From a virus: a DNA stretch of 64,000 nt. Position numbers and translations under genes: made by a program. The notes beneath the pieces are model-generated. The model was not told the origin of the DNA. It did not search any database and worked only from the letters and a program-made list of their open reading frames with translations. The stretch lies in IMG/VR virus record IMGVR_UViG_3300031555_005249; one strand, 5' to 3'. This document shows positions 2,729 to 47,401 of the stretch, piece by piece (the first letter of the stretch is position 1; each line of letters opens with the position of its first letter).

Positions 2729-2748
2729 GATATCTTCCTCTTTTTTAC
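2706..2748. terminator. Rho-independent terminator hairpin (aagaggaagatat-tgag-atatcttcctctt + T-run) closing the plus-strand operon and also lying downstream of the RuvC gene
   Basis: Perfect 13-bp inverted repeat followed by TTTTTT, seen in sequence. Confidence 0.6.
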
Positions 2749-3254
2749 CACTCTAAAGCAGAGCTATAATCTTTTTCTTTTTTTGGATGTAAATAAGCAT
2801 GACCAATACAAATTGCGTCTGCAATGTCGTCATTGGTTAAAGATAATCCATAAGCACGGTTTGCAAAGTCTATATCTTTCTATTTTTTCTATTCGCGCTT
2901 AGATCCACGTCCATCTTCTATTCCACATACGGAGCGCCAAGAACTAGGATAAACTAATTCAATTTCTACATTAGGATATTTATCATGAAGCTCGATATGG
3001 ATTAACGCTTGTAAATACATTAATGCTTTAAATGTATTAGTGTTTTTAGTATGATCTGGAATAACTTCTTCCATTACAATTTTTTCAATCTTTAACTATT
3101 CTACTAATGCTAGTATATTATCAACCATTTTATGGATTCGTTTATATAAATCATTTGAAGAAGCTGTAATACAAGTCTATCCAATCAACTCTTTGTCTTT
3201 AAAAATTGCCACACCTGTTGCTTTAGTTGAGGCATCTAATGCAAGTAAGTACAT
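2745..3254 (-). CDS. RuvC-like Holliday-junction resolvase, with 4 in-frame TAG codons
   Basis: Rejoined translation MYLLALDASTKATGVAIF...DDIADAICIGHAYLH carries the RuvC catalytic motifs. The listed ORF 2889-3074 is only the middle fragment. GGAGGTG RBS upstream. Confidence 0.65.
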
Positions 3255-3277: not shown

Positions 3278-3306
3278 ATTATACTATAAAATTTTATAAA
3301 AGTCAA
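3278..3306 (-). promoter_or_regulatory. Consensus sigma-70-type promoter (TTGACT-17-TATAAT) for the RuvC unit
   Basis: Minus-strand reading TTGACTtttataaaattttatagTATAAT. Confidence 0.55.
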
Positions 3307-5257: not shown

Positions 5258-5739
5258 TAACTAATCCTTTCTGCGTATTGATTGGGAGAAGCCAATTTTA
5301 CGCCAAGTATTTCATCATAATGTGACTCAGTATTTGGAATATAGCGCCCAAATTTTATTATGATGTTTGAAAATTGTTTTAATTGAATTAATTCATTTTC
5401 AATCTCATCTTTATTATAACCTGTATAGATAATAATATCATCATTTATAGAATAACATTCTCTAAAAACAAAGATAAGATTTAACAGGTCTTCAAATGTA
5501 TCAAAAGGTTCTAGACCTTGGAAGCATATCGCGCGCGCGATAGGGTTGTTTCTATAAGCTTGTACTATTGAAGTGTTAGCAATTTCTTTATCAGGTGCGG
5601 CCACCAGTGCGCTATTTTGACACACTGGTTGGCCGCATTCACGATCGCATTTAAAACCTTTACAAATAGGCGTTTCTATTGTCATACAAGGAACTTTATA
5701 ATTTACAAAATCTTCAAATATAATTCCTTTTATTTTCAT
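5257..5739 (-). CDS. nrdG: Anaerobic ribonucleotide reductase activating protein (NrdG-like radical SAM)
   Basis: Cys cluster CKGFKCDRECGQPVC near the N-terminus, size about 160 aa, sits directly next to nrdD. Confidence 0.55.
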   Translation of the reverse strand: MKIKGIIFEDFVNYKVPCMTIETPICKGFKCDRECGQPVCQNSALVAAPDKEIANTSIVQAYRNNPIARAICFQGLEPFDTFEDLLNLIFVFRECYSINDDIIIYTGYNKDEIENELIQLKQFSNIIIKFGRYIPNTESHYDEILGVKLASPNQYAERIS

Positions 5740-8700
5740 TTATTAATAGGCTCCCATTTTCTCATTTTATATTCATTAGTTCTTTCTTTTGACCACGTCT
5801 TTATAGGGGTGTAAAAGCCAACGATACGAGTATATTCTGTTTCAACTGGTCGACCACATACTGGACAAGTGCGTCCATAGAAGGCATGGTTATTATCACA
5901 AGCTTGAATCTTGGTATTAAAAGCAAAATATGTTACTCCTGCATCAGAGATATAATTAACCATATCCCAAGCCTTATCAAAACTATCAAATGGGGCATCG
6001 ATATTGGCGTGTAGGATCGAACCTCCATTGCAATATCCATCAAACTCTGCGGCGATACGTACGCGCTCGGCAAGGGTTGTTTGTATACCAAGCGGAATAA
6101 ATTGATTACCATAAAGCGGTAAGTCAAAGATGCTCGCTTCCGGATAAAAGAATTTGTCTTTTTTCATTAGCTTTGCGGCAGCCGACTCTCCGGGGATCTA
6201 TTCAGTATTAACGTGATAATCGGCGCCTACCTCTGCAATAAATTCATCTGCCGTTTGACGTATAGTCTCAAAGATTCTTTTACCAAGCGACGAAGCATTT
6301 TCTGTATAGTAAACATTGCCAAATTCATCTGTACGAGTATAGCCAAAACGCTTCATTGTTTCATATACTCCGATAAAACCAATAGTATTATAAAGATGTT
6401 CAAAGTCGACTAACCCATTAGAAAAATTAGGTAATAGTCCTTTTTCAACATTACGACGAATAATATTACGTACACAATGTAGTGCTTGAAGATTCAAAAG
6501 TGTCAACTTCTTCAATCCACATAGATATTCAAATTCATTAGCACTATCAAGAGCGAGGCGCGCGAGGTTGATTGTAGAGACTTTAACTGAACCGACTTTT
6601 AGTGCGGTACCTCCGATACTATTAAAATAACCTAGGTCTTTAATATCACTCTTCAAACGACAACAGTTAGAAAGTGAAGTTACTGAATCATCAATAAATA
6701 GGTTACTGTCAGACCAGCGCATATTGTGTTTAACTGCCCAGCGCGCAAAATCTTCATCTTGGAATTTACCTTCTTGTTTTAGTAGAGAGATTGAAAGTAC
6801 TGGAAAAGTAAACATATTCTTGTCCCTGATATCAGCAACGGTTTCCATATACCATTTTTGGAATTCAATAATTTCTTCTTCATAGTCAATCATAAATTCT
6901 CCATTAGGGAACTCACTGCCGCCAAATAAAGCTTCGTAGTAAGGACGATCAAATACACTGGTATTAGTAAATGCAGATTGCGACCCATCGCGGACATAAG
7001 GTTGATTCACTGCGTATACAAAACGCTGGAAGTTTTGACGTGCATATTTCTCTCCATTTCCGCTACTCTTGATACCGAGATAGTCTTCTTCCATATCCTT
7101 ATGCCAAAAGTAATACATATAAGGGATGAGATTAGGAAGTCCTACGGCGCCGGAGGAACGATTAGAAGCATAGCTAATAAACTCTTTAACAAAATCAACA
7201 AAAGTAGTTAAATGCTAAGCAGGCTCAGGATTAAAAGGTGCGCCAATAAAATATAGTCCTTTTTCAGCCAGGTCTTTCAGGTCATAAGCAAAACAATTAT
7301 GAGATAGAATGTTGTTGCAAATAAAATGACCTGTTTTTGTTGTTAAGTCATATACCTCAGGGCATTCATCAATATACTCTGAGTTATCAATAACTGAGAC
7401 CCATCCATAGTTATATTCATATTGCTTGTTTTTAAAATTACCTTTACGAGTTAAAGGAATATATTTTTCAGCAATTTTAATACTTCCAATACGAGAAAAA
7501 TATTCTTCGTTCGTTAAAGTGAAGCCAATCCCAAACATTGGTAACTTTTGTTCGAAGCTTCCAGCTCGATTATATCTAAATGGAGTGCGATCTCCTGCAA
7601 AAACCCCTTTGGAATGTAAATACATACTCAATTGATGGCATAGCGTTTCTGAGGCAATACGGATATGACAATGTCTATTTTTATATCCATCAATAGTACC
7701 ATCGCCATCGATCATTCCCGCAATAATTCCATCCATAAATTCAGAAGGATAAGTCATGAAATATGATGGTAACTGCTTAGTTGCAGAAGTCTGACCTTTT
7801 AATAGTGAATTTAACCATTCTTCAAAAGGACTAACCTTTAAATAAATTTTTCTATCTCCACTTTCTGAATATGGAATATCATATTGGTCACAGATATATT
7901 TTAATTTTTCAGCTTGAGGAGAATCTAGTTTTTGAGCAATTACAAATTGACTATTCAGACTATTTCCTTCGGAAAGAGCCATACCTAATATCCATCCTGT
8001 CTCTCTATTATAAGGAATTTGATATACAATTTCTTGATGACTTTCAGAATATTTATTAGGCTGTATTGTAAAGACTCGATACTCACTAGTTACATCCTTT
8101 GCAGGAATATCTCCACAATCGGTAATAATAGGGTGATCTTCTGTTACAATTTGTGATAAACCATTTGCTAACTTGATAAAACGCATAGGTTTATTATTTG
8201 TGTGTTTAACTGCGCGAGTAATCTTAGTCCAACATTTTTCTCCAGTTTCTTCATTAATATCAAGTATCTCGATATTTTTCGGGAAAAGTGCATTTTGTTC
8301 AATAGATACATCATATTTTTCTTCTGCTTCTGTATCCATATACAAAATATTTTCATACAAATTCTTAAGTGCAAAAGTGTATTCACGATGCACCTTGTCT
8401 CTTACTGTTACAAGTTCTTCACCCTTATAGCAGTAATGTTTAAAGGTCGAGGTATCAGCATCATGCATGTAGAGCTGACCAATCCATTCGGCGCGCAACC
8501 ACTCATTTGCACGTTTAAAACCAAAATGTTTTTGCATCTCATAATGAATTTTATTATAAGCTAATAATTTTCTATGAGGTTTTGGCATTTCGTTTAAGAG
8601 AGTTACAATATCTTTTTTACTAACATTACTATTGCCATCAATACTCGCGTCAGCTACGACTTTGGTATCGATAAATGAACTAATAAAATCTGTGTAACTT

Positions 8701-8885
8701 AATTGTTCATCAGCAAATCCATTAAGCTTTGCCATTTCAGTTCCAAATTCATCTTGCATTTTGTTATAAGCAGTAACAAAATTTTTCTTTAATTTAACAT
8801 TAACTTCCATATCTCCAATGATATCCTCCTGTTGTTTGTAAAAATCCTTGACAGCATCGAGATATGTTTTCATGATGTATGCCAA
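5736..8885 (-). CDS. nrdD: Anaerobic ribonucleoside-triphosphate reductase NrdD, one continuous frame with 2 in-frame TAG (6198-6200, 7215-7217) and a LAGLIDADG intein
   Basis: Three listed ORFs (7215-8885, 6198-7118, 5736-6167) are in frame and separated only by TAG. C-terminus has the CPVCG Zn ribbon and the glycyl-radical region TRIVGFYTP. Confidence 0.8.
7296..8432 (-). mobile_element. Intein (379 aa) with LAGLIDADG homing-endonuclease domain inside NrdD
   Basis: Starts with Cys after ...TSTFKHY, ends ...ILSHN followed by Cys+1. Internal motifs LGMALSEGN and IAGMIDGDG. Confidence 0.75.
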
Positions 8886-9480
8886 GCTCTTTCTCTGCTT
8901 CTGCTAGAGATTTAAAGTTTTGATTTAGCTCCACACAATAAACTGGAGTAACTCTTTTATCTTCAGATAGAGGAAGATTATTTGATAAATAATCTTCATA
9001 GTATGTCCAATGAAATTTATATGCAGTGTGTAATTTTCCACGACAACACGCAATAATATTTGCATTAGCAAAACCCTTTAATCGTTCAATTTCTTTTGCG
9101 CTATCAAAAACCTTTTGTGTTTCTAAACATATAATTTTTCTTTTTGTTTTACAACTATTACTCATTTTTTGACGAGATTCTCTTGAATATTCATTATTCA
9201 ATCCGCCACTTTTTATATTATAGCCACTATTCACAGTATCATATTTTGTGATAAGTTCTTCTTCTTTTTGATTAGCTTCCTGTAATGTTAAGTTCTCATA
9301 TAAAATAGTCTATTCAAAATTATCCCATCCATATTTTTCAATAGCATGATAAAATTTAACACAGCCAGTATAGTTAGAGGGGTGACAGCGACGCGTGATA
9401 TCTTTAGACTAACCAATATATTTTTTGCCATTTATTTTATTGGTATAACAATAAATGCAATATTGATTATCCATTAGCAT
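8800..9480 (-). CDS. GIY-YIG homing endonuclease (I-TevI-like, NUMOD C-terminus), 2 in-frame TAG
   Basis: N-terminus MLMDNQYCIYCYTNKINGKKYIG-TAG-SKDI...R..H...AIEKYGWDNFE; a TAG sits at the conserved Gln of the YIGQ motif. Free-standing between nrdD and nrdH, as seen with T4 mob/seg genes. Confidence 0.75.
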
Positions 9481-14530: not shown

Positions 14531-15418
14531 TTATTCTATATACCTCCAATAATATCCATATGCTTTTCTTTGCTTTCTGGCAGCTGCGCAAATATTACTT
14601 TTATCTTGTAATCCTAGAGCTCTAGCTGCATCTGCTCCAGAGTCATATTCAGCAATTATGCTATTATCTAACGTGAGTTGTTGAATTCTTTTCTTAGGGC
14701 GTCCACTAGATAACTTATTCTAATAAATTTGTACCCACTCTTGGATATCTCTTTCATCTGCTTTGTATTTCCAAAGAAAGCCGTAAGCACTTTTCTATTT
14801 CTAAGCACATACCTAACTAATTGCTGTTTGTTGAAAACCATTAGCCCTGCCGCACTCTGAGGCTGATTCCCATTCTTGGATAAAATATCCATTTAAATCA
14901 TACTGTAGTACAGGATAAGCACATCGTTTTGCTACTGCGCAACCAAATCTTGCGGCTATCTCTTCTCGTGAAATTCCTGCTCCTCTTAATCGAAGTCGGG
15001 CAGTTTTTTTTGAACAGCCTATTTTTTCAGCAATTTCTTTAATTAAAAGACCTTGATTCCAGCCATCAAGAAAAAGCTGAGTGGGATATAGAATCGCCCC
15101 TTGTCCTCCAAGAACTGCATTGTATCCATTATTAGGGTCGGTGCTGTCAAAATATTCTATATAATACATTTCTCGCTCAAATCTAATTTCATCAGGGCAT
15201 TTCTCTAGCGTTTCAATAATAAAATTTTGTTCTCCGTATTTTCGTATAGCACAAGAAATATGATAATAATATCCATGATCACCTTCTTTAGAATGAGCCC
15301 TTCTTATATGTTCCCTCCACCTTGTCTCAACCCCTCGAATAGTTTCTCCTATATAAACTTTATTGTTTATTTGGTTGGTAATTTTATAAATATAAGCCAT
15401 AAAATGCTCTCCTTTCAC
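14531..15418 (-). CDS. GIY-YIG homing endonuclease with NUMOD1/NUMOD3 C-terminal modules, 6 in-frame TAG
   Basis: N-terminus YIYKITNQINNKVYIGETIRGVETRWREH...E...N. The frame continues through the TAG at 14813 for about 95 more aa and ends in the NUMOD1 signature ...AARALG...GYYWRY. Confidence 0.8.
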
Positions 15419-15478
15419 TTTGTTCTTATATATATAAGAAAAAAGTGATAATAAAATTATTGAGATTTGACCTTAATT

Positions 15479-16177: not shown

Positions 16178-16496
16178 TTATTTTCCATGCTCCTATTTCA
16201 AAGTTATTTAGATCTATTAGCGGCGGATCGCCAATGAAAGCGATTTTTATTGGCTTTTGAAGTTCGCTTACGCCAAGTATCCAAAGAGAATTGGGATCTA
16301 GCCTCTCTGGGTCGTAGTATACTTCTACAGGTATCTGTTTTTCTTTTATTTTTTGTCTGAATAAAAGATACAATTCTTCAAAAGATAGCTCTCTTACATC
16401 AGTCGTTGCTTTTATGTTCTCAATTAGATCGTGTAATTCTGCTTCTATATATGGTTTCATTGCTACCTCATTTCCGTTGATAATATTCTTCTTCAT
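16161..16496 (-). CDS. Hypothetical protein
   Basis: ORF track. Confidence 0.35.
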   Translation of the reverse strand: MKKNIINGNEVAMKPYIEAELHDLIENIKATTDVRELSFEELYLLFRQKIKEKQIPVEVYYDPERLDPNSLWILGVSELQKPIKIAFIGDPPLIDLNNFEIGAWKINDRKI

Positions 16497-17440
16497 TTTC
16501 TTTTGTTAATAGAAATCTTGAAGTTTCTAATTTTAAATCGTTTAGGTCATACTCTTGATCATATGGGATACGAATTAATGGAATATTATGTTCAAAACAA
16601 TATTTATTTTTAAGTAAATCGTTGTTGCGAGTTTCTTCAAAATGCTCTTTTGTATTCCAAGTATTTATAGTATCTTTGCGATATGAAAAATGTTGTTGTC
16701 CATCAAATTCAATAATATAAGAGTCTTCTATATAAAAATCAAATCTAGCCTTTGCACCAGAGGCTAACAAACAGTCTTTAAAACTCTTTTGGTTTGTAAA
16801 GCTAATATCGGCTTCTTGTAACATTTGTGTAATTTTTGTTTCATTATAGGATGCGCCTAAACAGCCGCAACTTTTTGTTTGCCCCACAGTTAAATAGCCA
16901 GAAGGAACTTCCGTATAGTTACCGCAATCACATAAGCATTTCCAAATTACATAAGATCCAATCCTTTTTTCAGTTGGTTCTAAAGCAGTTAATAAGCCAA
17001 ATTTTTGATTACTTAAATCAATAAAATGCCTAGGTTTACAAAATCCACAGCTTTTGGTGTCGCCAGCCGTAAGACTTGAGCCCATTACTATATGCGCCCT
17101 TCCACAAGAACATTTGCAATTCCAAAAGGCATGGCCACCTTCTGTTTTGGCTAAACTTAAAACTGTAAGTTCTCCAAAAGTTTGTCCTGTTAAATCTCGA
17201 ACTGGTCTTCCGCCACTTTTATTTTCGTGTTTAAGACAGCCACAAGATTTAGTATGATCTGATGTTAAATGGTTTTTAGACACCACTAATAAAGTCTTTG
17301 CTTCACATTGACATTCGCAGAGCCAAAAGACACCTTTTCTCCCTGTTGGATGCTCTACTCTATATAGCGCTTTTAAACGATTAAACTATTTACCAGAAAT
17401 ATTTTCAGCTTGCCCTATTGGAATTTGTTTGTACTCCATT
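16468..17440 (-). CDS. Putative homing-endonuclease-like protein: N-terminal repeated Zn-ribbon modules (LTxGxTKSCGC, 4 copies) plus a C-terminal Vsr/DUF559-like PD-(D/E)xK nuclease motif (FDFYIEDSYIIEFDGQQH), 1 in-frame TAG
   Basis: ATG at 17440 (MEYKQIPIG...) runs in frame through a TAG into the listed ORF 16468-17286. Confidence 0.5.
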
Positions 17441-22353: not shown

Positions 22354-23106
22354 TCATCCTTTCTTTAAATAATTTTCTACATCTTCAATAAACAACCAAT
22401 GATAACCATAGCCTTTAGTTTCACCTTTATTACGACAACTTCTACGAATGTGAGAACCATCTGTTTTTCCTAGTGCTCGAGCAGCGGTTTGACTTGATGA
22501 ATACTCTTGTTTGGTTTCTATGCAATATACTGGTTTACTATTGGTTTTAACTGAATTTATTCGCATTTTATCTAATTTAATTTTTTCTTCTTCTTTATGA
22601 CTATCCCAGTATACACGAGATGCCATTCTTCCTTTTAAGGTATTATTTTTTCGTTCTTCAAAAGAAGAATTTTCTATATATTTTACATTAATTTCCTTTA
22701 AAAATACTTTCTTTTCTTCTTTTTTATCTTCTGGTAAATTTTGCCAAGTATTTTTAGAAGCAATACCAATTTTCTTTTTAGTTTCTTCTGTGTGCAAATG
22801 TCCAAGCTGACCTCCTTTTGTTAAATTATATCCAAAATCAGGATTGTCACTTTTATAAAATTGGATATAAAATTTTTCCCAATAATCAGCTTCATTTTGA
22901 CTTAGCAAGTTTTGTTTTAAAATTATATGCTCAAAATTATCCCATCCATATTTTTCAATGGCAGAATAAAAAAGAGGGCTTTTAATATATTGCTTTCCAT
23001 TAGCTCTCCATCTCTACTTTATATTACAGCTTTGTCCTATATATCTTTTCTAATTTTGCTTATTAACATGAGCATAGATACACCATTTTTTAATATTTTC
23101 ATTCAT
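22354..23106 (-). CDS. GIY-YIG homing endonuclease with NUMOD3/NUMOD1, 2 in-frame TAG
   Basis: Rejoined N-terminus MNENIKKWCIYAHVNKQN-Q-KRYIGQSCNIK-Q-RWRANG...SAIEKYGWDNFE. C-terminus has HTEETKKKI and AARALG...GYHW. Confidence 0.75.
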
Positions 23107-28264: not shown

Positions 28265-29250
28265 CAAGATATTTTAATGGGAATAGACTATATCTTCATC
28301 CATTTTAAACGGTGGATGTCATGCACTTCGATTTAAAGGATTTTCACCTACTTTTATATTATTATAAAAGCCCTACTCCTGTTGAGGAAATTTCATCCTC
28401 CAGTGGGATAGTCGTTGAACCTTCTCCTATTCGGAGCTTGGCTGCTGATTGCCCAATTTAATCAATTTTTAACATTCGCACTTAGATTTCTTTCATTCTT
28501 ATGCTGTAGTTTGATTAACTCTAAGGGGTTTCCAGCAATTCACATGATTTGCTTAATGGATTGCTCCATTAAGGGCCTTATATATTTCATATTTTCGTCT
28601 CAACCGAGAGGCCTCGGTTGAATGTTCATAAATTTTATTTAAAATTTGTACAACTGCAGCGCCTTCTTTATGAATTTGATAAGCAGAGGTTCCACAAGGA
28701 CTTACTTTATTATCAAACTCTAAAATTTCTAGCATTTGTTTTGTGCAGATCTCAGTTTGACTGACAAAACTTAAACTAGGAATATTGTTTCTATCTTCTC
28801 TAATGTGAATACTACCATCTGCATCTAGCAATCCTCTTGCAAAATCATAAATATATTCATTAGGAATGTTTTCAAGGGGAATACTAAAAATAGAGGTTTT
28901 TGCAGGTACTATATTATATTGTGCTAAATAACGTTTTAACTCTGCCGAGTTTATAGATACAGTTAAAGCATGACATCCAGTGTTATTAGTACGCTCTGTA
29001 ATGGGCGCATTAGATTCAAAGAATGCTTGTAAATTTTCAAGCTGCTCTCTATCTATATCTTTTAACTCAACTCTTACTCTGGCTTCATTTTTAGCTACAT
29101 TTCCATCTCCAGCTAAAAATCCAAGCCAATAATATTTTTCATGAGGGTCTATTTTAATGTTTGTTAAATTTAAAGGATATTTTCTCAAAAAACTTTCAAC
29201 TCCTTCTTTAAGAGAGCGAAAATATGAAATAAAAATGTTAAGCCATACGG
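28265..29250 (-). mobile_element. Group I intron (minus strand) splitting the Sak4-like gene and carrying a LAGLIDADG homing endonuclease ORF; exact 5' splice site not resolved (about 29241-29335)
   Basis: Canonical core elements in order: P AAATTGGGCAA (28449-28459), Q AATCAGCAGC (28441-28450), R GTTCAACGACTATCC (28406-28420), S AAGATATAGTC (28287-28297). Intron ends with G at 28265. A possible P10 (CTCTT with exon-2 AAGAG) is present. Confidence 0.6.
28553..29188 (-). CDS. LAGLIDADG homing endonuclease (double-motif), encoded within the group I intron
   Basis: Motifs LGFLAGDGNV and LLDADGSI; TTG start preceded by AAGGAG. Confidence 0.8.
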   Translation of the reverse strand: MRKYPLNLTNIKIDPHEKYYWLGFLAGDGNVAKNEARVRVELKDIDREQLENLQAFFESNAPITERTNNTGCHALTVSINSAELKRYLAQYNIVPAKTSIFSIPLENIPNEYIYDFARGLLDADGSIHIREDRNNIPSLSFVSQTEICTKQMLEILEFDNKVSPCGTSAYQIHKEGAAVVQILNKIYEHSTEASRLRRKYEIYKALNGAIH

Positions 29251-32860: not shown

Positions 32861-34150
32861 CATTAATTTTGACTATTTTTTACTGTAATTTTTATTACAG
32901 GAAACCATTTCGGCATTTAAAGTACTTCGTTTCCTAAAATACTACTATGTGCTAATAATAGCCCTACTTCCCCGCCCATAAGGCCTAGGGAATAGTCGAT
33001 ACAGGTTTTTCAATTAATCCATTATTTTCTAGCAGGATAATCATAATCTTTAAGAATATAAGTTTTTCCTAAATTAATATTACTTATAGTTGAACGCCCT
33101 ATGTTATATTGTGCACCAATATTATCCATAGAAGTATTAGTATTACGTAACAGATCTAAAATATTCTAAACATCCTCTAAAGTTAAATTATGATTATTGC
33201 GAATGTTTTTTGCTCTAATAGGATAACTATATTTCCCTATTTCTGCAAATTTTCTTCCATTATTAATGTCTCTTAATACCCTGATTGGAATATTATATTT
33301 AATATCTATACCACCTTGAATTGGTAAATCCCAACGATACAATAAATCTTCTTTTAAATTAACTAGCTCTTCTTCGGAGGAAAAATAATCTAAAACTTCT
33401 GTCTTACACGCTGAGTCATGATTATTTTTTCTTAATGGGTAAACTAAGTTTGGATTAACATAGGTTCTACCTGTTGAAATATTTAATATAGTACCTTGTC
33501 CTACTCCATATTTATTACCTATCTCTGTTAAAGAAAACTCTGTATGATTAATTAACAAATCAATTATTTCTTTAAGTTGATTTTCATTTAAAGCTGCATT
33601 AGGATTTTCAGTCCCTCGTTTCCCCGAAGCGTCTCCTCCTCGGGTTTTATTGTATCCGTGTCCATCTTTAATATAGGTTTTATAAAAGGAAATCCAATAT
33701 CTTTCTTTATCATCTAATAACGATAAGTCAGAAACTGTTTCAAGTAATTCAAACTCATCAATAATAATATTGTATTCTTTCATTTTTTGCTCACACAATA
33801 GAAGTTCTCTTGAACCATGTCCAGCTTGACTATAAGAATTATGCTCCATAAGTCTAGCTCGAATATTTTGAGCCTATCCAATGTAAGCTTTTCCGTTTGG
33901 GTAATTAATTTTATAAATTCCGCTAATAATGTCATTTGGTGTCATCTTAGATAAAAATAATTTTTGCATTTTATGCCTCCTATAATGTTATATTCATCAG
34001 TTGTTCATATATATATTATTTTTATGGAAGATGGATTAATCAAAATTTCCCACGAGATTGTATTTTATTAAAAAATATTTTCCTCGTTAGCCACTATAAG
34101 TTAGCGACCCCTAGCAGCTACTAGGTAAAGTTTTTCATCGGCCAACATTG
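32861..34150 (-). mobile_element. Group I intron carrying a GIY-YIG homing endonuclease ORF, inserted in a gene that itself encodes a GIY-YIG domain
   Basis: 5' splice site after U at 34151, closing a P1 with a U-G pair (exon CGGU with intron GCCG). A 7-bp P10 pairs intron AATGTTG with exon-2 CAACATT. Core R-like ATCGACTATTCC and S-like ATAGTC elements are present. Intron ends with G at 32861. Confidence 0.65.
33022..33970 (-). CDS. GIY-YIG homing endonuclease (intron-encoded) with HTH C-terminal modules, 2 in-frame TAG
   Basis: MQKLFLSKMTPNDIISGIYKINYPNGKAYIG-TAG-AQNIRARLMEH...GYNKTRGG; a TAG sits at the conserved Gln of YIGQ. The frame reads through the TAG at 33166 to a TAA at 33022. Confidence 0.75.
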
Positions 34151-35118
34151 ACCGCTTGTCCGATATAAGATATACCAGAGTCAATGTGTGTTATCTTATA
34201 TATTCCACTGGCGCCCAACGCACCTACGCGCGCCGCAAGGTCATTGACTTTATCTCTATAGAAAGTAGTCCATATAAGCATACGCAAAGGTCTTGCTTCG
34301 CGTAGATTATATTCAATACTTTGAAGATATGCCACGTCTCGCTTATCTGCCTCATTAAGTTGAAGAGTATAAAATGTTGCTTGATTTTTAATTTCTTCTT
34401 CACGAAGTTGTGCTTCCATTGTGGCGGCCTTGGTTGCACGAATTTTTTCTAGCTCTTTGCGGATTGAGTCTAGGTCGGCGCGCATTGCCGCCTCTTCTTC
34501 TTGTAATTCTTTAGACATTGACTATTGCTTATCATAAAATAATTGCACAAGAGTGTCAATATCTTGACGTCGCTCTTCAATTAATCCTTTTTCTCTTGCA
34601 TCAAGTTCTTGAAGTCTGTCAAAATATAATTGATCAAGAGTGTCCACTTCAATATCGAACTCTTGTTCGCGTTTTTGATATTCATAATCAAGAGTCTCAC
34701 AATATTGTTCAAAGGAGGCGAGCGCAGCTGCCTTTAAGTCACCTGACATTGTCTCTACAGAGCTGCTGAAAGCAGCAATTTGCGCCTCAATTCCTGCTTT
34801 TTCAATTTGCTTATTTTGAATTTCATTTATTAACAACAATTTCTATTGAGTTAATTGATTTAATTCGTCGTAAGAATTTTTTGTTTTTTTACAGTTCTCT
34901 TCATATTTTTGAGAAATTTCATTGTTAGATTTTATCAATAAGTTATTTTGTGCTTCTAAGCTTTTGCGAGTTGCTTGTAATGACTAATTGAGTTCTTCTA
35001 GTTTCTAATTTTCTTCTGCTGTATAGCGATTAGCTTTTACAGATGTGGCTTTAACCCATACTCCATAAGCAAGACCGCTCACACCAAGAAGAATTGATAT
35101 TACGCATAATACTATCAT
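34151..35118 (-). CDS. Exon 1 of the membrane-anchored coiled-coil protein with a C-terminal GIY-YIG domain (N-terminal TM helix, long coiled coil, GIYKITHIDSGISYIGQAV), 4 in-frame TAG
   Basis: ATG at 35118 (MIVLCVISILLGVSGLAYGVWV...) is in frame through TAGs at 35005, 34984, 34843, 34522 into the listed ORFs 34522-34839 and 34135-34518. Confidence 0.55.
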
Positions 35119-35162
35119 CTTTACAATTTAAGGGGTAATTGCATAATTACCCCTTATTTTCC

Positions 35163-43071: not shown

Positions 43072-43554
43072 TTATATTATATTTAAGCGGAACATTCTAT
43101 ATCCTTCAACCATTATTTTGAATTTAACATATAATTCAGATAACGAATATGCTTCCAGCGCTGGATCCTTAAGAGGGAAAACGGGCGCACAAGTGGAATA
43201 CCCATTTTCAGTCAAAAAATTTCTAAAAGCATTTTCGATTCGGTCGAGACGTTCGCCTTCAATCCGAACAGCTTCTTCAGTATAAGGGGTGTCATAAAAA
43301 CCTGTATCTATTGTCATATAGTATTTTTTATCAGCTCGATTATAATAAATATATGCATCATCCCAAGAGCAGAACGAAGGTGTAATTATAGGGTTTGTAT
43401 TATATCCCCATATAAATTTATTATCTAACATATTAAATTCATCGTCGCGCCAGTCCGGATAAAGGCGCACGCATCTTGCTTTTTCGCGCTTCATGCTTTT
43501 GCCTATACGACGAAATTCTTTACGTAAATAGGCATCTAATTTTTGTTTATTCAT
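43072..43554 (-). CDS. Hypothetical protein
   Basis: ORF track. Confidence 0.4.
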   Translation of the reverse strand: MNKQKLDAYLRKEFRRIGKSMKREKARCVRLYPDWRDDEFNMLDNKFIWGYNTNPIITPSFCSWDDAYIYYNRADKKYYMTIDTGFYDTPYTEEAVRIEGERLDRIENAFRNFLTENGYSTCAPVFPLKDPALEAYSLSELYVKFKIMVEGYRMFRLNII

Positions 43555-43614
43555 ACTTACTCCTTGTTAATAATGGTAAAGCTCCTTTGATTCTCTCAAA
43601 GGAGCTTCTCTATC

Positions 43615-43689
43615 TGGCAGGGGAGGTAGGAATCGAACCTACGTCTGTGGTTTTAGAGACCACGGTCTTGACCTTTCGACGACTCCCCA
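43615..43689 (-). tRNA. Amber suppressor tRNA (anticodon CUA, reads UAG), class I, with U1-U72 mismatch and G73 (Gln-like identity)
   Basis: Hand-folded cloverleaf: acceptor 6 bp, D-arm, anticodon stem GTGGT/ACCAC with loop CT-CTA-AA, T-arm GTAGG-TTCGATT-CCTAC, CCA encoded. Confidence 0.8.
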
Positions 43690-43801
43690 GTATAAGTAAT
43701 GAGGTGGCTGTTTATTAATATTTTACCTGTCGAAATTTAAGTTGTCAGGCGGCACCTTTCACACACCACTTTTTTCATTTCTTAACTCATTACATTTATA
43801 T

Positions 43802-43830
43802 TATATACAAATTTTTTAGTTTTGTCAAAT
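43802..43830 (-). promoter_or_regulatory. Consensus promoter TTGACA-17-TATAAT driving the suppressor tRNA
   Basis: TTGACAaaactaaaaaatttgtaTATAAT, about 110 nt upstream of the tRNA 5' end. Confidence 0.55.
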
Positions 43831-44346
43831 AAAGAAATCAATTGATTGTCTAAGTGGATCGTCATCTGGTTTAAACCAATATTCAATAAGCTCTTTATAT
43901 TTCTTATGATTGCCAGTAGCTAAGGCATCTGCTAATTCATTACCTATATCACCTGAGTGCCCGTCGCATTTGTGAACTTCTGCGTTGAAAAATGGGCGCG
44001 AAATGTAACTCCATATTGCTTTCATCAAATCGATATTTTCTACTTCTTGCTTTTTTGAGTTACGCCATCCATTAGCCGCCCATGTCCGCATCCAAGAGTT
44101 GCAACTATTGACAACATAAGCGCTATCAGAATAAATAATAAACTGGTCATTTGGATGAGACTCTACATATCCAAGGGCGCAAATCATTGCCTTTAACTCC
44201 ATACGGTTATTGGTTGTATGATCTTCAGTGTCGTGCTCAGTGAAAATAATCTCAGTTTCATTTTCATTCATCACGATCATTCCCCAGCCACCTGGGCCCG
44301 GATTAAATCTTGCACTTCCGTCTGTGTATATATGATATTTAGCCAA
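43825..44346 (-). CDS. rnhA: Ribonuclease H
   Basis: IYTDGS...ELKAMICAL...IIYSDSAYVVNSCNSW...CDGHSGDIGNELADALA. Confidence 0.85.
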   Translation of the reverse strand: MAKYHIYTDGSARFNPGPGGWGMIVMNENETEIIFTEHDTEDHTTNNRMELKAMICALGYVESHPNDQFIIYSDSAYVVNSCNSWMRTWAANGWRNSKKQEVENIDLMKAIWSYISRPFFNAEVHKCDGHSGDIGNELADALATGNHKKYKELIEYWFKPDDDPLRQSIDFFI

Positions 44347-46153: not shown

Positions 46154-46702
46154 TTAATCATTCTTTTGAATCTCCTTCCAATGCTCAGTAATCTCTTCAA
46201 TAACTGTATCAAGTAGTACGGGTCTACAATCATGCGCATCCATATTTACGTTGTAGCAAAAAGAGTGTTCACACCACTTTGAAGTAGAGTGAGTGTGTCC
46301 ATGTAAATTCCATGTAGCTAACCAACATTTGTCTTTTCCGTTGCCTGTAAGGGTAGGATAATGGCTAAGATAAAAACTTTTCTTTTTGTATTTTAACCTA
46401 TATGCAAAATGAACATCGTATCCAAGTTCTTTATATATAGCAATTCGAGTATCCGTGCAATGGTTGCCACAAACCACATGAATATGTCCTTTGAGTTGTT
46501 TAAGAGCGGCCGCCCCTTTTTCATTATCATTCATCATTAAATCGCCAAGAATCCAGACATCATCTTCATGATCAACCAATTCATTCCATCTTTTAATAAT
46601 TTCTTCGTTCATATGGTCTGGAGAAGTGAATCCTCGTGCTTCCCATACAAATGGTTGAATATGGGATAGATGCAAATCGCTAGTTACATATATTTTACCC
46701 AT
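46154..46702 (-). CDS. Calcineurin-like metallophosphoesterase
   Basis: Motifs DLHLSH, GDL, GNHC, GHTH. Confidence 0.75.
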   Translation of the reverse strand: MGKIYVTSDLHLSHIQPFVWEARGFTSPDHMNEEIIKRWNELVDHEDDVWILGDLMMNDNEKGAAALKQLKGHIHVVCGNHCTDTRIAIYKELGYDVHFAYRLKYKKKSFYLSHYPTLTGNGKDKCWLATWNLHGHTHSTSKWCEHSFCYNVNMDAHDCRPVLLDTVIEEITEHWKEIQKND

Positions 46703-46924: not shown

Positions 46925-47401
46925 TCACCACTCTCTAATACGAGTAATTTTAGTAAAACCTTCATCTCTTGTAGGTGCCTCCATTTGAAAGAACATTCTA
47001 CGAATGACTCCACGCGGCACTCGTGCGCGCCCTTCGCGCAGTTCGTTTCTTATAAGTGCAGTTTCAAGAGGAACCTCTATTACTATTATTTCTATTTCAT
47101 CTGCAAATTTAGCGACTTTATTAAGAACTTTAGCGCGCGCCTTTTTATTAAGATGAGTCGCATCTGCTATTGCAATTTCATCTACTATAAGACTGCCAAT
47201 AATTTGATAAATAAACTTATCAAAAACTTCATCTTCATAGTCAAAATACTCGCCGCCTCTTTTATCAAGCAATTCAAAACGAATTGCATCTCTTGATACA
47301 GGTATTATATCTGGAAAATTATTTTTTATCCAAGTACTTTTACCAGAACCTGGAACTCCGCACATCATAATTAATTTACTCATTCTTCTATCTCCTTCCA
47401 A
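46925..47401 (-). CDS. P-loop kinase (polynucleotide-kinase-like, AAA_33)
   Basis: Walker A MCGVPGSGKST; about 150-aa kinase domain. Confidence 0.55.
   Translation of the reverse strand: MEGDRRMSKLIMMCGVPGSGKSTWIKNNFPDIIPVSRDAIRFELLDKRGGEYFDYEDEVFDKFIYQIIGSLIVDEIAIADATHLNKKARAKVLNKVAKFADEIEIIVIEVPLETALIRNELREGRARVPRGVIRRMFFQMEAPTRDEGFTKITRIREW

Follow-up and report, generated by a model that had tools for sequence, protein, structure and literature searches.

A conserved phage tRNA with a CUA anticodon is a probable amber suppressor reading in-frame TAG codons, most probably as glutamine

We analysed a 64,000-nucleotide stretch of viral DNA (IMG/VR record IMGVR_UViG_3300031555_005249, hereafter the window) that carries on its minus strand a tRNA gene with the amber anticodon 5'-CUA-3'. 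Comparative evidence makes it very probable that this gene encodes a functional phage amber-suppressor tRNA and that UAG is read by the phage as a sense codon, most probably for glutamine ("genetic code 15"). The evidence comes from the persistence of the tRNA at one locus, from compensatory changes in its stems around a fixed anticodon, from TAG codons lying in frame within conserved protein domains, and from the residues that homologous proteins carry opposite these codons.

A CUA tRNA at a conserved phage locus

ARAGORN found six tRNAs in the window, one of which was a 75-nt minus-strand gene with cta at position 34 (Table 1), the same call as that made in a preliminary description based on sequence inspection. 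The Rfam tRNA model RF00005 scored this gene at 58.9 bits (gathering threshold 29, E 3.5e-10), with U8, G18G19, U33 and the T-loop motif UUCGAxU in place, and marked 1:72 as its sole non-standard pair. Read as RNA from the minus strand, the sequence is UGGGGAGUCGUCGAAAGGUCAAGACCGUGGUCUCUAAAACCACAGACGUAGGUUCGAUUCCUACCUCCCCUGCCA. Its acceptor stem (U1.U72, G2-C71, G3-C70, G4-C69, G5-C68, A6-U67, G7-C66) is followed by the discriminator G73 and an encoded CCA (43617-43615), U8 and C9 lie between the acceptor and D stems, and the D loop AAAGGUCA contains G18G19. The 5-bp anticodon stem GUGGU/ACCAC closes the 7-nt loop CUCUAAA, in which U33 is followed by C34, U35 and A36, the amber-decoding triplet, and then by A37 and A38; A36-A37-A38 is the motif used by tRNA isopentenyltransferase. 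The variable region has 4 nt, the T loop is UUCGAUU, and the cloverleaf is the minimum-free-energy fold. Every structural feature listed in the preliminary description (U33, A37, the 4-nt variable loop, the U1-U72 mismatch and G73) was present; that description had left only the strand of the gene unstated.

ARAGORN prints "tRNA-Pyl" for any CUA anticodon, and the label is the program's name only. A tRNA-Pyl is recognised by an anticodon stem of 6 bp, a variable loop of 3 nt, a tiny D loop that lacks G18G19, a single base linking the acceptor and D stems, the absence of T-psi-C and an accompanying pylS gene. The CUA tRNA departs from all five structural features, having a 5-bp anticodon stem, a 4-nt variable region, GG in the D loop, two linker bases and the T loop UUCGAUU, and neither PylS nor the Pyl-biosynthesis families matched any window open reading frame (ORF) of at least 300 aa. 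The TAG codons described below align with Gln and not with Lys-like positions. A pyrrolysine tRNA, for which the anticodon and the ARAGORN label speak, is therefore rejected as extremely improbable.

Related loci were fetched via the two proteins flanking the tRNA, an RNase H and a 160-aa protein. The CUA tRNA was found in all 20 related contigs that span the intergenic region between these genes (two further contigs end before this region and are outside the 20), and the recurrence of both the tRNA locus and its promoter in all of them argues that the gene did not arise by chance. The locus yielded 13 distinct CUA tRNA sequences of 75, 76, 77, 90 or 99 nt, representing at least nine different tRNA bodies at one syntenic position, all with CUA, G73, CCA and a weak or absent 1:72 pair. 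Exact lookup of the window tRNA in IMG/VR gave no match, nor did BLAST against E. coli genomes.

Covariation was assessed on the cloverleaf in 12 tRNAs, 10 from the locus and two adjacent suppressors of the gut phage phAss-1. Standard pairs filled 92.9% of cells, compared with 41-52% when partners were slid by 1-3 columns; changes on both sides were seen in 15 of 21 stem pairs, and the observed covariation was reached by no shuffle. All five anticodon-stem pairs covaried while CUCUAA (loop positions 32-37), G73 and CCA were invariant. This combination of compensatory drift in the stems with a fixed anticodon is the pattern predicted by selection for UAG decoding, and on comparative evidence the CUA tRNA is functional.

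The first acceptor pair was never G-C or C-G across the family. It was mismatched in six lineages, as U.U (window, L017), U.C (L002, L013, phAss-1 no. 1) or A.A (L107), and paired as U-A in the 99-nt type and in L015, L022 and L025 or as A-U in phAss-1 no. 2 (names beginning with L denote related loci). Glutaminyl-tRNA synthetase (GlnRS) must open the 1:72 pair, and a pair that is already unpaired should help it.

Several relatives carry a long variable arm, which is unusual for a Gln- or Trp-like body with G73. The 99-nt form occurs in L001 (6580-6678), L014 (2342-2440), L019 (2346-2444), L023 (2336-2434) and L026 (2241-2339), and other long-arm CUA tRNAs in L017 (2367-2456, 90 nt) and L024 (4079-4169, phAss-1 no. 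2); ARAGORN miscalls such genes as "taaa" or Leu(taa). The arm stem of the 99-nt type covaries (CUACGG/CCGUAG versus AUACGG/CCGUAU) while the loop GUCUGCU is kept. Mimicry of a Gln anticodon arm through the UCUG loop motif was considered and kept as a low-probability idea only: minimum-free-energy folds place UCUG partly in the stem of phAss-1 no. 2 and give the 99-nt type a 5-nt loop, and the geometry is implausible too. Serine identity of these relatives, suggested by G73 together with a long arm, was tentatively set aside, as the sole informative TAG in such a genome aligns with Gln (IEFDGE-TAG-HF). Insertion of homing-endonuclease genes has occurred on both sides of the suppressor tRNA, in different relatives: one in L002 (6500-7360) with seven in-frame TAGs and one in L025 (1315-2289), between the tRNA and the 160-aa gene, with none.

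Table 1. Suppressor-tRNA transcription unit and TAG-bearing genes of the window
Feature	Coordinates	Strand	Evidence
Amber-suppressor tRNA gene, CCA included	43615..43689	-	ARAGORN, RF00005, minimum-free-energy fold, covariation over 12 tRNAs
Anticodon 5'-CUA-3', tRNA positions 34-36	43654..43656	-	ARAGORN, Rfam; CUCUAA invariant in 12 aligned relatives
Sigma-70-type promoter: -35 TTGACA 43828-43823, 17-nt spacer, -10 TATAAT 43805-43800	43800..43828	-	12/12 match
Predicted 5' leader, ~104 nt	43690..43793	-	Comparison with relatives, folds; predicted start
13-bp hairpin, 7 nt past CCA end	43578..43608	-	Fold; hairpin at same position in relatives
NrdD, anaerobic ribonucleotide reductase with intein; TAGs 7215-7217, 6198-6200	5736..8873	-	Alignment to T. 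maritima NrdD
RuvC/DUF3882-like resolvase; TAGs 3177-3179, 3096-3098, 2889-2891, 2880-2882	2745..3254	-	Near-threshold domain match spanning all four TAGs
GIY-YIG homing endonuclease; TAGs 9409-9411, 9310-9312	8800..9474	-	GIY-YIG domain (residues 4-86) spans both TAGs
GIY-YIG/NUMOD homing endonuclease; TAGs 14813-14815, 14801-14803, 14795-14797, 14720-14722	14531..15400	-	
Endonuclease-like gene, IEFDGQQHF motif; one TAG, 17386-17388, inside N-terminal repeat motif	16468..17439	-	
GIY-YIG homing endonuclease; TAGs 23050-23052, 23014-23016	22354..23106	-	Domain (residues 7-86) spans both TAGs
GIY-YIG homing endonuclease; TAGs 33874-33876, 33166-33168	33022..33969	-	Domain (residues 17-98) spans first TAG
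HNH endonuclease; TAG 52702-52704	52279..52905	-	HNH_3 domain (residues 59-102) spans TAG
Large repeat protein; TAGs 55653-55655, 54876-54878	54192..57029	-	Open frames of 258 and 227 codons after TAGs

TAG codons lie in frame within conserved domains

The preliminary description regarded the tRNA as the counterpart of in-frame TAG codons, and the genes of the window support this. Twenty in-frame TAGs were distributed over nine genes (3,768 codons; Table 1), compared with none in 14 core replication genes (7,620 codons), and neither set contained an in-frame TAA or TGA. Among minus-strand ORFs of at least 80 aa, seven of the ten that ended with TAG continued in frame for 47-338 open codons, versus 5 of 66 that ended with TAA or TGA (Fisher p = 3.6e-5). 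An eighth TAG-ended ORF (14813-15472) also continued, through three more TAGs of a GIY-YIG/NUMOD gene; of the remaining two, one (83 aa) runs into TGA one codon further on and the other overlaps the tRNA cluster. Within the 64-kb window no gene needs TAG as a terminator. A naive stop-to-stop comparison of coding density did not discriminate between genetic codes.

Protein homology ran across these codons, as expected under code 15. The alignment of NrdD to the solved Thermotoga maritima (T. maritima) enzyme was unbroken through both TAGs over 513 residues, and single Pfam domains spanned TAGs in five further genes, three encoding GIY-YIG endonucleases, one an HNH_3 protein and one the RuvC/DUF3882-like resolvase. 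Read with the standard code, the resolvase is absent from the list of ORFs, and its TAG positions are occupied by TAG or Gln in relatives; several TAGs are kept as TAG across relatives. In the GIY-YIG gene at 8800-9474, YIG-TAG-S aligns with YIGQS of the paralogue 22354-23106, and the GIY-YIG gene at 33022 has a 47-codon open continuation past its second TAG. The two TAGs of the large repeat protein occupy the same position of two internal repeat units, NIDS-TAG-NRLTLNGIDNL and NMGS-TAG-NNELITLNGIDNL.

These data bear on whether the tRNA might be a relic, or serve a non-decoding role as a nuclease decoy, recombination site or regulatory RNA, with the TAGs read by near-cognate host tRNAs or lying in decaying genes. 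Most TAGs, 13 of 20 by one tally, do fall in homing-endonuclease-type genes, which often decay, and a suppressor tRNA was detectable in only 40% of recoded phages (bioRxiv 10.1101/2021.08.26.457843), which implies that other routes of read-through exist. We nevertheless consider a relic or non-decoding tRNA very unlikely: the anticodon loop has stayed exact while all anticodon-stem pairs and most others changed in a compensatory manner, every related contig spanning the locus has kept the tRNA, the TAG-bearing genes lack in-frame TAA and TGA and share TAG positions with relatives, and read-through is needed by essential-looking genes, namely the RuvC-like gene and NrdD with its C-terminal glycyl-radical domain.

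Additional observations concerned the TAG-bearing genes themselves. Genes of homing-endonuclease type (GIY-YIG, HNH, IEFDGQQH-type and a Hint-module gene at 53008-54195, minus strand) are very dense in the window and hold 12 of the 20 TAGs. A coiled-coil frame at 34135-35127 (minus strand) has up to four TAGs and ends with GIYKITHIDSGISYIGQAVNVGR before a TGA; this ending resembles the start of a GIY-YIG domain, and the frame may be a fusion, a frameshift or a decayed endonuclease. The nrdD gene carries an in-frame intein-like insertion of ~400 aa, with LAGLIDADG-type motifs, between HYCYKGEEL and SHN|CFAYDL, and close NrdD homologues of 645 aa are without it. The shared TAG of the large repeat protein either predates the duplication of the repeat units or is maintained; the initial reading of this protein suggested N-terminal leucine-rich BspA-like repeats.

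Glutamine is the commonest residue opposite TAG

The most informative codon was the NrdD TAG at 6198-6200, which is the X of the motif NTE-X-IPGE. This position is Gln in 120/120 database homologues and in the T. maritima structure. As some database proteins may be table-15 translations, we examined the DNA codons and found CAA at 51 and CAG at 27 of 78 IMG/VR loci, that is Gln in 78/78, with CAG in four of the five closest relatives. The other NrdD TAG (7215-7217) lies at a variable K/R/Q position and is CAA in the two closest relatives. Partners of TAG were then tallied in true reading frames of relatives at least 55% identical. Of nine informative TAG positions in the window, six had Gln as the commonest partner, and the window residue was Gln at 4 of 11 positions where a relative has TAG; overall, Gln was the top partner at 10 of 20 informative positions and Trp at 1 of 20. 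In related NrdD proteins, a TAG common to L028 and L029 has Gln opposite it in 68 of 72 sequences, and one found only in L064 corresponds to CAA in its two sister loci of 98% identity, L066 and L070.

Codon usage pointed in the same direction. The fraction CAG/(CAA+CAG) was 14.5% in TAG-bearing genes versus 44% in TAG-free genes, and counting TAG together with CAG raised it to 28%, about what the stronger A/T bias of these genes would predict, as judged by the GAG/GAA ratio. Taken together with the alignments, TAG is most probably read as glutamine.

The tRNA body is ambiguous between tRNA-Gln and tRNA-Trp

The preliminary description had also ascribed Gln-like identity elements to the tRNA, a claim that held in part. 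The bacterial Gln identity set comprises G73, U1-A72, G2-C71, G3-C70, G10, U34, U35, G36, A37 and U38, and the Trp set G73, A1-U72, G2-C71 to G5-C68, A9, C34, C35 and A36 (PMC9976931). G73, G2-C71, G3-C70 and G10 were all present in the sequence and in the Rfam alignment, which upholds the Gln acceptor and core elements; G73, G2-C71 and G3-C70 are, however, Trp determinants too (PMC9976931), and since such acceptor features are common to tRNA-Gln and tRNA-Trp they are by themselves no proof of Gln identity, so that the protein alignments carry the assignment. Of the element U1-A72 only U1 is found: with U at position 72 the two bases do not pair at all, which goes beyond a weak pair. The Trp set is incomplete, as A1 (here U), A9 (here C) and C35 (here U) are missing while G73, U72, G2-C71 to G5-C68, C34 and A36 are present. 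It thus resembles a tRNA-Trp body without being a member by identity set, with a Gln-like U1 and a Trp-like U72, and in alignment with E. coli trpT and glnV/glnW its loop CUCUAAA is the tRNA-Trp loop with C35U.

Relatives complicated the picture further. The sole full-length match of the tRNA among GenBank phages was the phAss-1 suppressor; a tRNA-Trp-like gene of Bacillus phage TsarBomba has the anticodon stem, T loop and 3' acceptor strand in common with it. Two relatives at the locus (L015, L022) lean towards tRNA-Gln, with the D arm GCCAAG-GG-AAGGC and the loop CUCUAAC, which equals CUCUGAC of a phage tRNA-Gln(CUG) with G36A. The ancestry of the window tRNA is therefore ambiguous, and the family may be mixed. 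Such ambiguity does not weaken the glutamine assignment, because the E. coli tRNA-Trp amber suppressor is itself charged with glutamine (PMC9976931), recognition by GlnRS being driven by U35 together with base pairs 1-72 and 3-70 (PMC9976931).

Several observations nevertheless weigh against glutamine. The Gln anticodon-loop set is incomplete, with G36 and U38 absent from the loop C34 U35 A36 A37 A38; G36 is impossible in any amber suppressor, and C34 occurs in E. coli tRNA-Gln isoacceptor 2. With the anticodon masked, the tRNA was 62% identical to E. coli tRNA-Trp versus 63% to tRNA-Gln, leaving the isotype ambiguous, and 59% identical to two phage tRNA-Gln genes, compared with 74-92% among genuine tRNA-Gln genes. 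GenBank phage matches over the 3' two-thirds of the tRNA were mostly annotated as tRNA-Trp, and none of them as tRNA-Gln. A host lacking GlnRS would have to use the Glu-tRNA amidation route, and the amidotransferase relies on U1-A72 (PMC9976931), which this tRNA lacks. Among the proteins, little points away from glutamine: the HNH-gene TAG (52702-52704) stands opposite Phe of I-HmuI, a single distant homologue, and four shared TAGs in a distant NrdD subgroup (loci L035-L076 and L105; alignment columns 150, 154, 737 and 820) stand opposite Glu or Asp (GAA/GAG/GAT) of their nearest relatives. A change of GAG to TAG with conservative replacement of Glu by Gln would explain the latter, and partial insertion of Glu could occur in these distant phages.

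From these points one might argue for a functional amber suppressor that inserts a different residue or a mixture: Trp through tryptophanyl-tRNA synthetase, in keeping with the C35U loop, the shared elements U72, G73 and G2-C71 to G5-C68, the tRNA-Trp annotation of the best phage matches and the aromatic residue of I-HmuI, or Glu through a non-discriminating glutamyl-tRNA synthetase with an amidotransferase that rejects the 1:72 mismatch, in keeping with the Glu/Asp partners of the distant NrdD TAGs. Either residue at NTEQIPGE would, however, replace a Gln that is invariant in the 120 proteins and 78 loci, Trp was the partner at a single informative position against ten for Gln, the codon depleted in TAG-bearing genes was CAG and not TGG or GAG, and a tRNA-Trp body did not prevent glutaminylation in E. 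coli. Insertion of a residue other than glutamine accordingly appears quite improbable.

The tRNA has its own promoter, a predicted leader and a 3' hairpin

A promoter of the form TTGACA-17-TATAAT had been proposed ~110 nt upstream of the tRNA, and we found all 12 hexamer positions to match, with 111 nt from the end of the -10 hexamer to tRNA nucleotide 1. The further proposal that it is the strongest match in the window failed, as it ties with three other perfect sites: four perfect TTGACA-N16-18-TATAAT sequences occur in the window (0.08 expected). A broader search returned 15 TTGAYW-N17-TATAAT sites (0.15 expected), all on the minus (coding) strand, with similar A/T-rich spacers and purine-rich initial transcribed regions; most precede protein genes, and those at 3278 and 52949 precede recoded genes. 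The tRNA promoter is thus a member of the general promoter class of the phage, and TTGAYT-17-TATAAT occurs at the same place before the CUA tRNA in relatives. The window also encodes a primary-like sigma factor (50148-51083, minus strand) with regions 1.2, 2, 3 and 4 and ~330 bits (334) to RpoD models, and the class promoters may be read either by it or by the host primary sigma factor.

A leader of ~104 nt is predicted from the distance between the -10 hexamer and the tRNA. Its first ~17 nt, GUAAUGAGUUAAGAAAU, are common to relatives, even where the neighbouring protein is only 46% identical, and in most relatives the tRNA starts ~20 nt past this conserved segment. In the window an 87-nt insert (43776-43690) separates GUAAUGAGUUAAGAAAU from the tRNA, an arrangement specific to the window genotype, which six further contigs share without change. 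To close the insert, GUAAUGAG (43793-43786) pairs over a long range with CUCAUUAC (43703-43696). L022 carries an insert of similar length at the same point, with an unrelated interior and the same ends, including a terminal CUCAUUAC, and the inner stem shows compensatory change (GUGG/CCAC in the window versus GAGG/CCUC in L022). The fold of the leader alone was unexceptional (z = -1.3), and the entire precursor folded as leader hairpin, cloverleaf and 3' hairpin (z = -3.25).

Searches for the insert elsewhere were negative. Rfam at E<=10 on 43560-43860 returned no ribozyme or riboswitch family for the leader insert or the 3' hairpin, and BLAST of the 87-nt insert against 1.46 Mb of related loci found no further copy. 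An unspecific metagenome scan for GAGTTAAGAA-N0-1-TGAAAAAAG returned at least 120 A-rich unrelated matches, none of those listed having a CUA tRNA or the leader, and a search with the conserved leader pattern matched only two contigs that were already known. A short ORF in the insert (MKKVVCERCRLTT, followed by a stop) was rejected as coding, as it is not kept in L022.

Downstream, the 13-bp hairpin is probably a terminator or processing hairpin, judging from its fold and from a hairpin with a T-run at the equivalent position in relatives. Telling against this in the window are its weak U-tract (UUACCAUUAUU) and a terminator scan that did not call it. The gene that follows has an AAGGAG ribosome-binding site of its own and starts at 43554, and the tRNA looks like a monocistronic unit with the predicted ends given in Table 1.

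A model for UAG decoding

These elements suggest the following pathway. The sigma-70-type promoter, of a class that precedes at least 14 other genes of the module, would drive synthesis of a ~220-nt precursor consisting of the structured leader, the tRNA with its CCA and the 13-bp hairpin, from which RNase P and 3' trimming would release the tRNA. Charging would fall to a host enzyme, which we propose because no synthetase or release factor was matched among window ORFs of at least 300 aa. U35, G73, G2-C71, G3-C70, G10 and the unpaired 1:72 would fit recognition by GlnRS, by analogy with the glutaminylated E. coli tRNA-Trp suppressor, and modification by isopentenyltransferase at A36-A37-A38 would strengthen the reading of UAG. 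The charged tRNA would then compete with release factor 1 at UAG, allowing full-length NrdD, RuvC-like resolvase, the products of seven homing-endonuclease-type genes and the large repeat protein to be made.

The repeated loss of the first acceptor pair, the 90- and 99-nt forms, and the 87-nt insert that pairs the 5' end of the transcript with nucleotides immediately preceding the tRNA raise the thought that the locus acts as a tunable "code switch" controlling when TAG-containing genes are translated. We regard this as unlikely; if it were true, these features would be adaptations that decide by which host enzyme the tRNA is charged, shield it from host defences aimed at tRNAs, or act as a gate on its maturation.

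Comparison with known recoded phages and suppressors

Recoding of TAG to Gln with phage suppressor tRNAs was established in a survey (bioRxiv 10.1101/2021.08.26.457843), metaproteomic validation of code 15 in crAss-like phages is reported (PMC9523058), and NCBI has a taxon "Caudoviricetes code 15 clade" that includes phAss-1 (OQ749652.1). When the window tRNA was compared with known phage suppressors, the closest was phAss-1 tRNA-Sup-CTA no. 1 (OQ749652.1; Babkin et al. 2023, PMC10607447), 80% identical over 75 nt and likewise having U1 with a mismatched 72 (U.C there), G73, an encoded CCA and the loop CUCUAAA. PhAss-1 is a gut phage of ~136 kb with TAG in many ORFs; TAG was taken to encode Gln, and a search for a cognate synthetase gene in it found none (PMC10607447). 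The two phages are otherwise unrelated, with no megablast match between them and with NrdD proteins of different subtypes that are only 25% identical over 104 aa. The phAss-1 suppressor lies in a tRNA array by nrdD, beside the second, long-arm suppressor, whereas the window tRNA is solitary between RNase H and the 160-aa gene; and recoding in phAss-1 affects mainly virion genes, whereas in the window it affects NrdD, the resolvase and homing endonucleases.

The window resembles TAG-recoded gut phages (crAss-like, Lak and the clades of Borges et al.) in its phage-encoded CUA tRNA, in-frame TAGs aligning with Gln, low GC content (36%), rarity of TAG, core early and replication genes compatible with the standard code, and reliance on host synthetases. 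It differs from them in that some recoded genes have promoters of the same class as the tRNA, with no early/late transcriptional separation visible in the module, and in that no "code-change module" of release factor or synthetase was matched among window ORFs of at least 300 aa. Like the E. coli tRNA-Trp amber suppressor and supE (tRNA-Gln), the tRNA presents CUA on a body with G73, G2-C71 and G3-C70; unlike these laboratory suppressors, which are mutant alleles, it is a naturally occurring and conserved phage gene, and its 1:72 pair is fully mismatched as U.U, compared with U-A in E. coli tRNA-Gln and A-U in tRNA-Trp.

A dedicated maturation context is also known for suppressor tRNAs associated with theta ribozymes, which resemble those of hepatitis delta virus (HDV), in recoded gut Caudoviricetes (Kienbeck et al. 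2024, PMC10879173). These ribozymes sit directly at tRNA 3' ends and cleave within 5 nt of them, and most of the tRNAs concerned lack an encoded CCA (PMC10879173). The window tRNA does not fit this pattern: its CCA is part of the gene, a simple 13-bp hairpin flanks its 3' end, and the structured insert lies on the 5' side; HDV-like Rfam families gave no match in 43560-43860 at E<=10, a search made with Rfam models and not with the published theta descriptor. In common with theta-ribozyme phages, the window has a DRB0094-like RNA-ligase gene (a weak match, below cut-off) 5 kb from the tRNA, a family reported to be enriched in phages with tRNA-associated theta ribozymes.

The mechanism of suppression is already known from other gut phages, and the window tRNA is a well-supported new example that overturns nothing. 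What goes beyond the literature consulted is a solitary unit of promoter, leader, tRNA and hairpin kept at one locus; the diversity of its tRNA bodies, including long-variable-arm forms, recurrent loss of the first acceptor pair and a Trp/Gln-ambiguous body; and the concentration of TAGs in homing-endonuclease genes, NrdD and the resolvase with none in core replisome genes. The practical consequence is that the standard code splits or misses at least nine window genes, including nrdD, and makes the resolvase vanish entirely; table 15 has to be used when translating genomes of this clade, which is abundant in metagenomes. Recoding of TAG to Gln would extend to a clade of ~120-140-kb phages only distantly related to the sole GenBank phage with a similar suppressor tRNA. 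The locus also amounts to a natural experiment in tRNA identity that bears on how amber suppressors recruit host GlnRS, and its tRNA bodies could supply suppressor scaffolds for genetic-code engineering.

Genome context and other features of the window

The tRNA lies in a phage replication and nucleotide-metabolism module encoding PolIII-alpha, an SF1 helicase, RecJ-like, primase-like, DnaB-like and AAA_24 proteins, an NAD-dependent ligase, gyrase B, gyrase A, RNase H, a Pnkp-like kinase, an RNA ligase, the sigma factor, a pyrimidine-dimer glycosylase and NrdD. Among window ORFs of at least 300 aa no aminoacyl-tRNA synthetase or release factor was matched. A DNA-level megablast of the window found no GenBank phage match; PolIII-alpha is ~40% identical to that of SPbeta-like Bacillus phages. 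The 160-aa protein just downstream of the tRNA is 100% identical on 11 metagenomic contigs (ENA, JGI), the longest of 135 kb. A single-protein query of GTDB genomes for a host gave no match, and a profile of the 160-aa family found one 106-kb contig there, in a metagenome-assembled genome of Eubacteriales; this contig is probably the phage itself and so a weak host hint. Together with Shine-Dalgarno sites and the 36% GC content it weakly suggests a Bacillota host.

Three minus-strand genes 3-6 kb upstream of the tRNA (46154-46702, 46925-47401 and 48696-50132) form a possible RNA-repair set, with a weak phosphoesterase match, a Pnkp-like kinase domain (AAA_33) and a 478-aa RNA ligase, all below curated cut-offs; the N-terminal part of this ligase is the one weakly like the DRB0094 family. 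A group I intron at 28265-28620 (minus strand; Rfam 78.2 bits) is overlapped by a LAGLIDADG endonuclease ORF (28553-29188, minus strand). Unusually for a phage, the 826-aa protein encoded at 57552-60032 (minus strand) matches a vault repeat and, at 91 bits, the shoulder domain of Major Vault Protein. The five other tRNAs, for Cys, Gly, Thr, Leu and Asn, are clustered and encode CCA; among them, tRNA-Thr(UGU) (63070-63154, minus strand) is 85 nt long with an extended variable region, and tRNA-Asn(GUU) (63818-63892, minus strand) has an atypical T loop.

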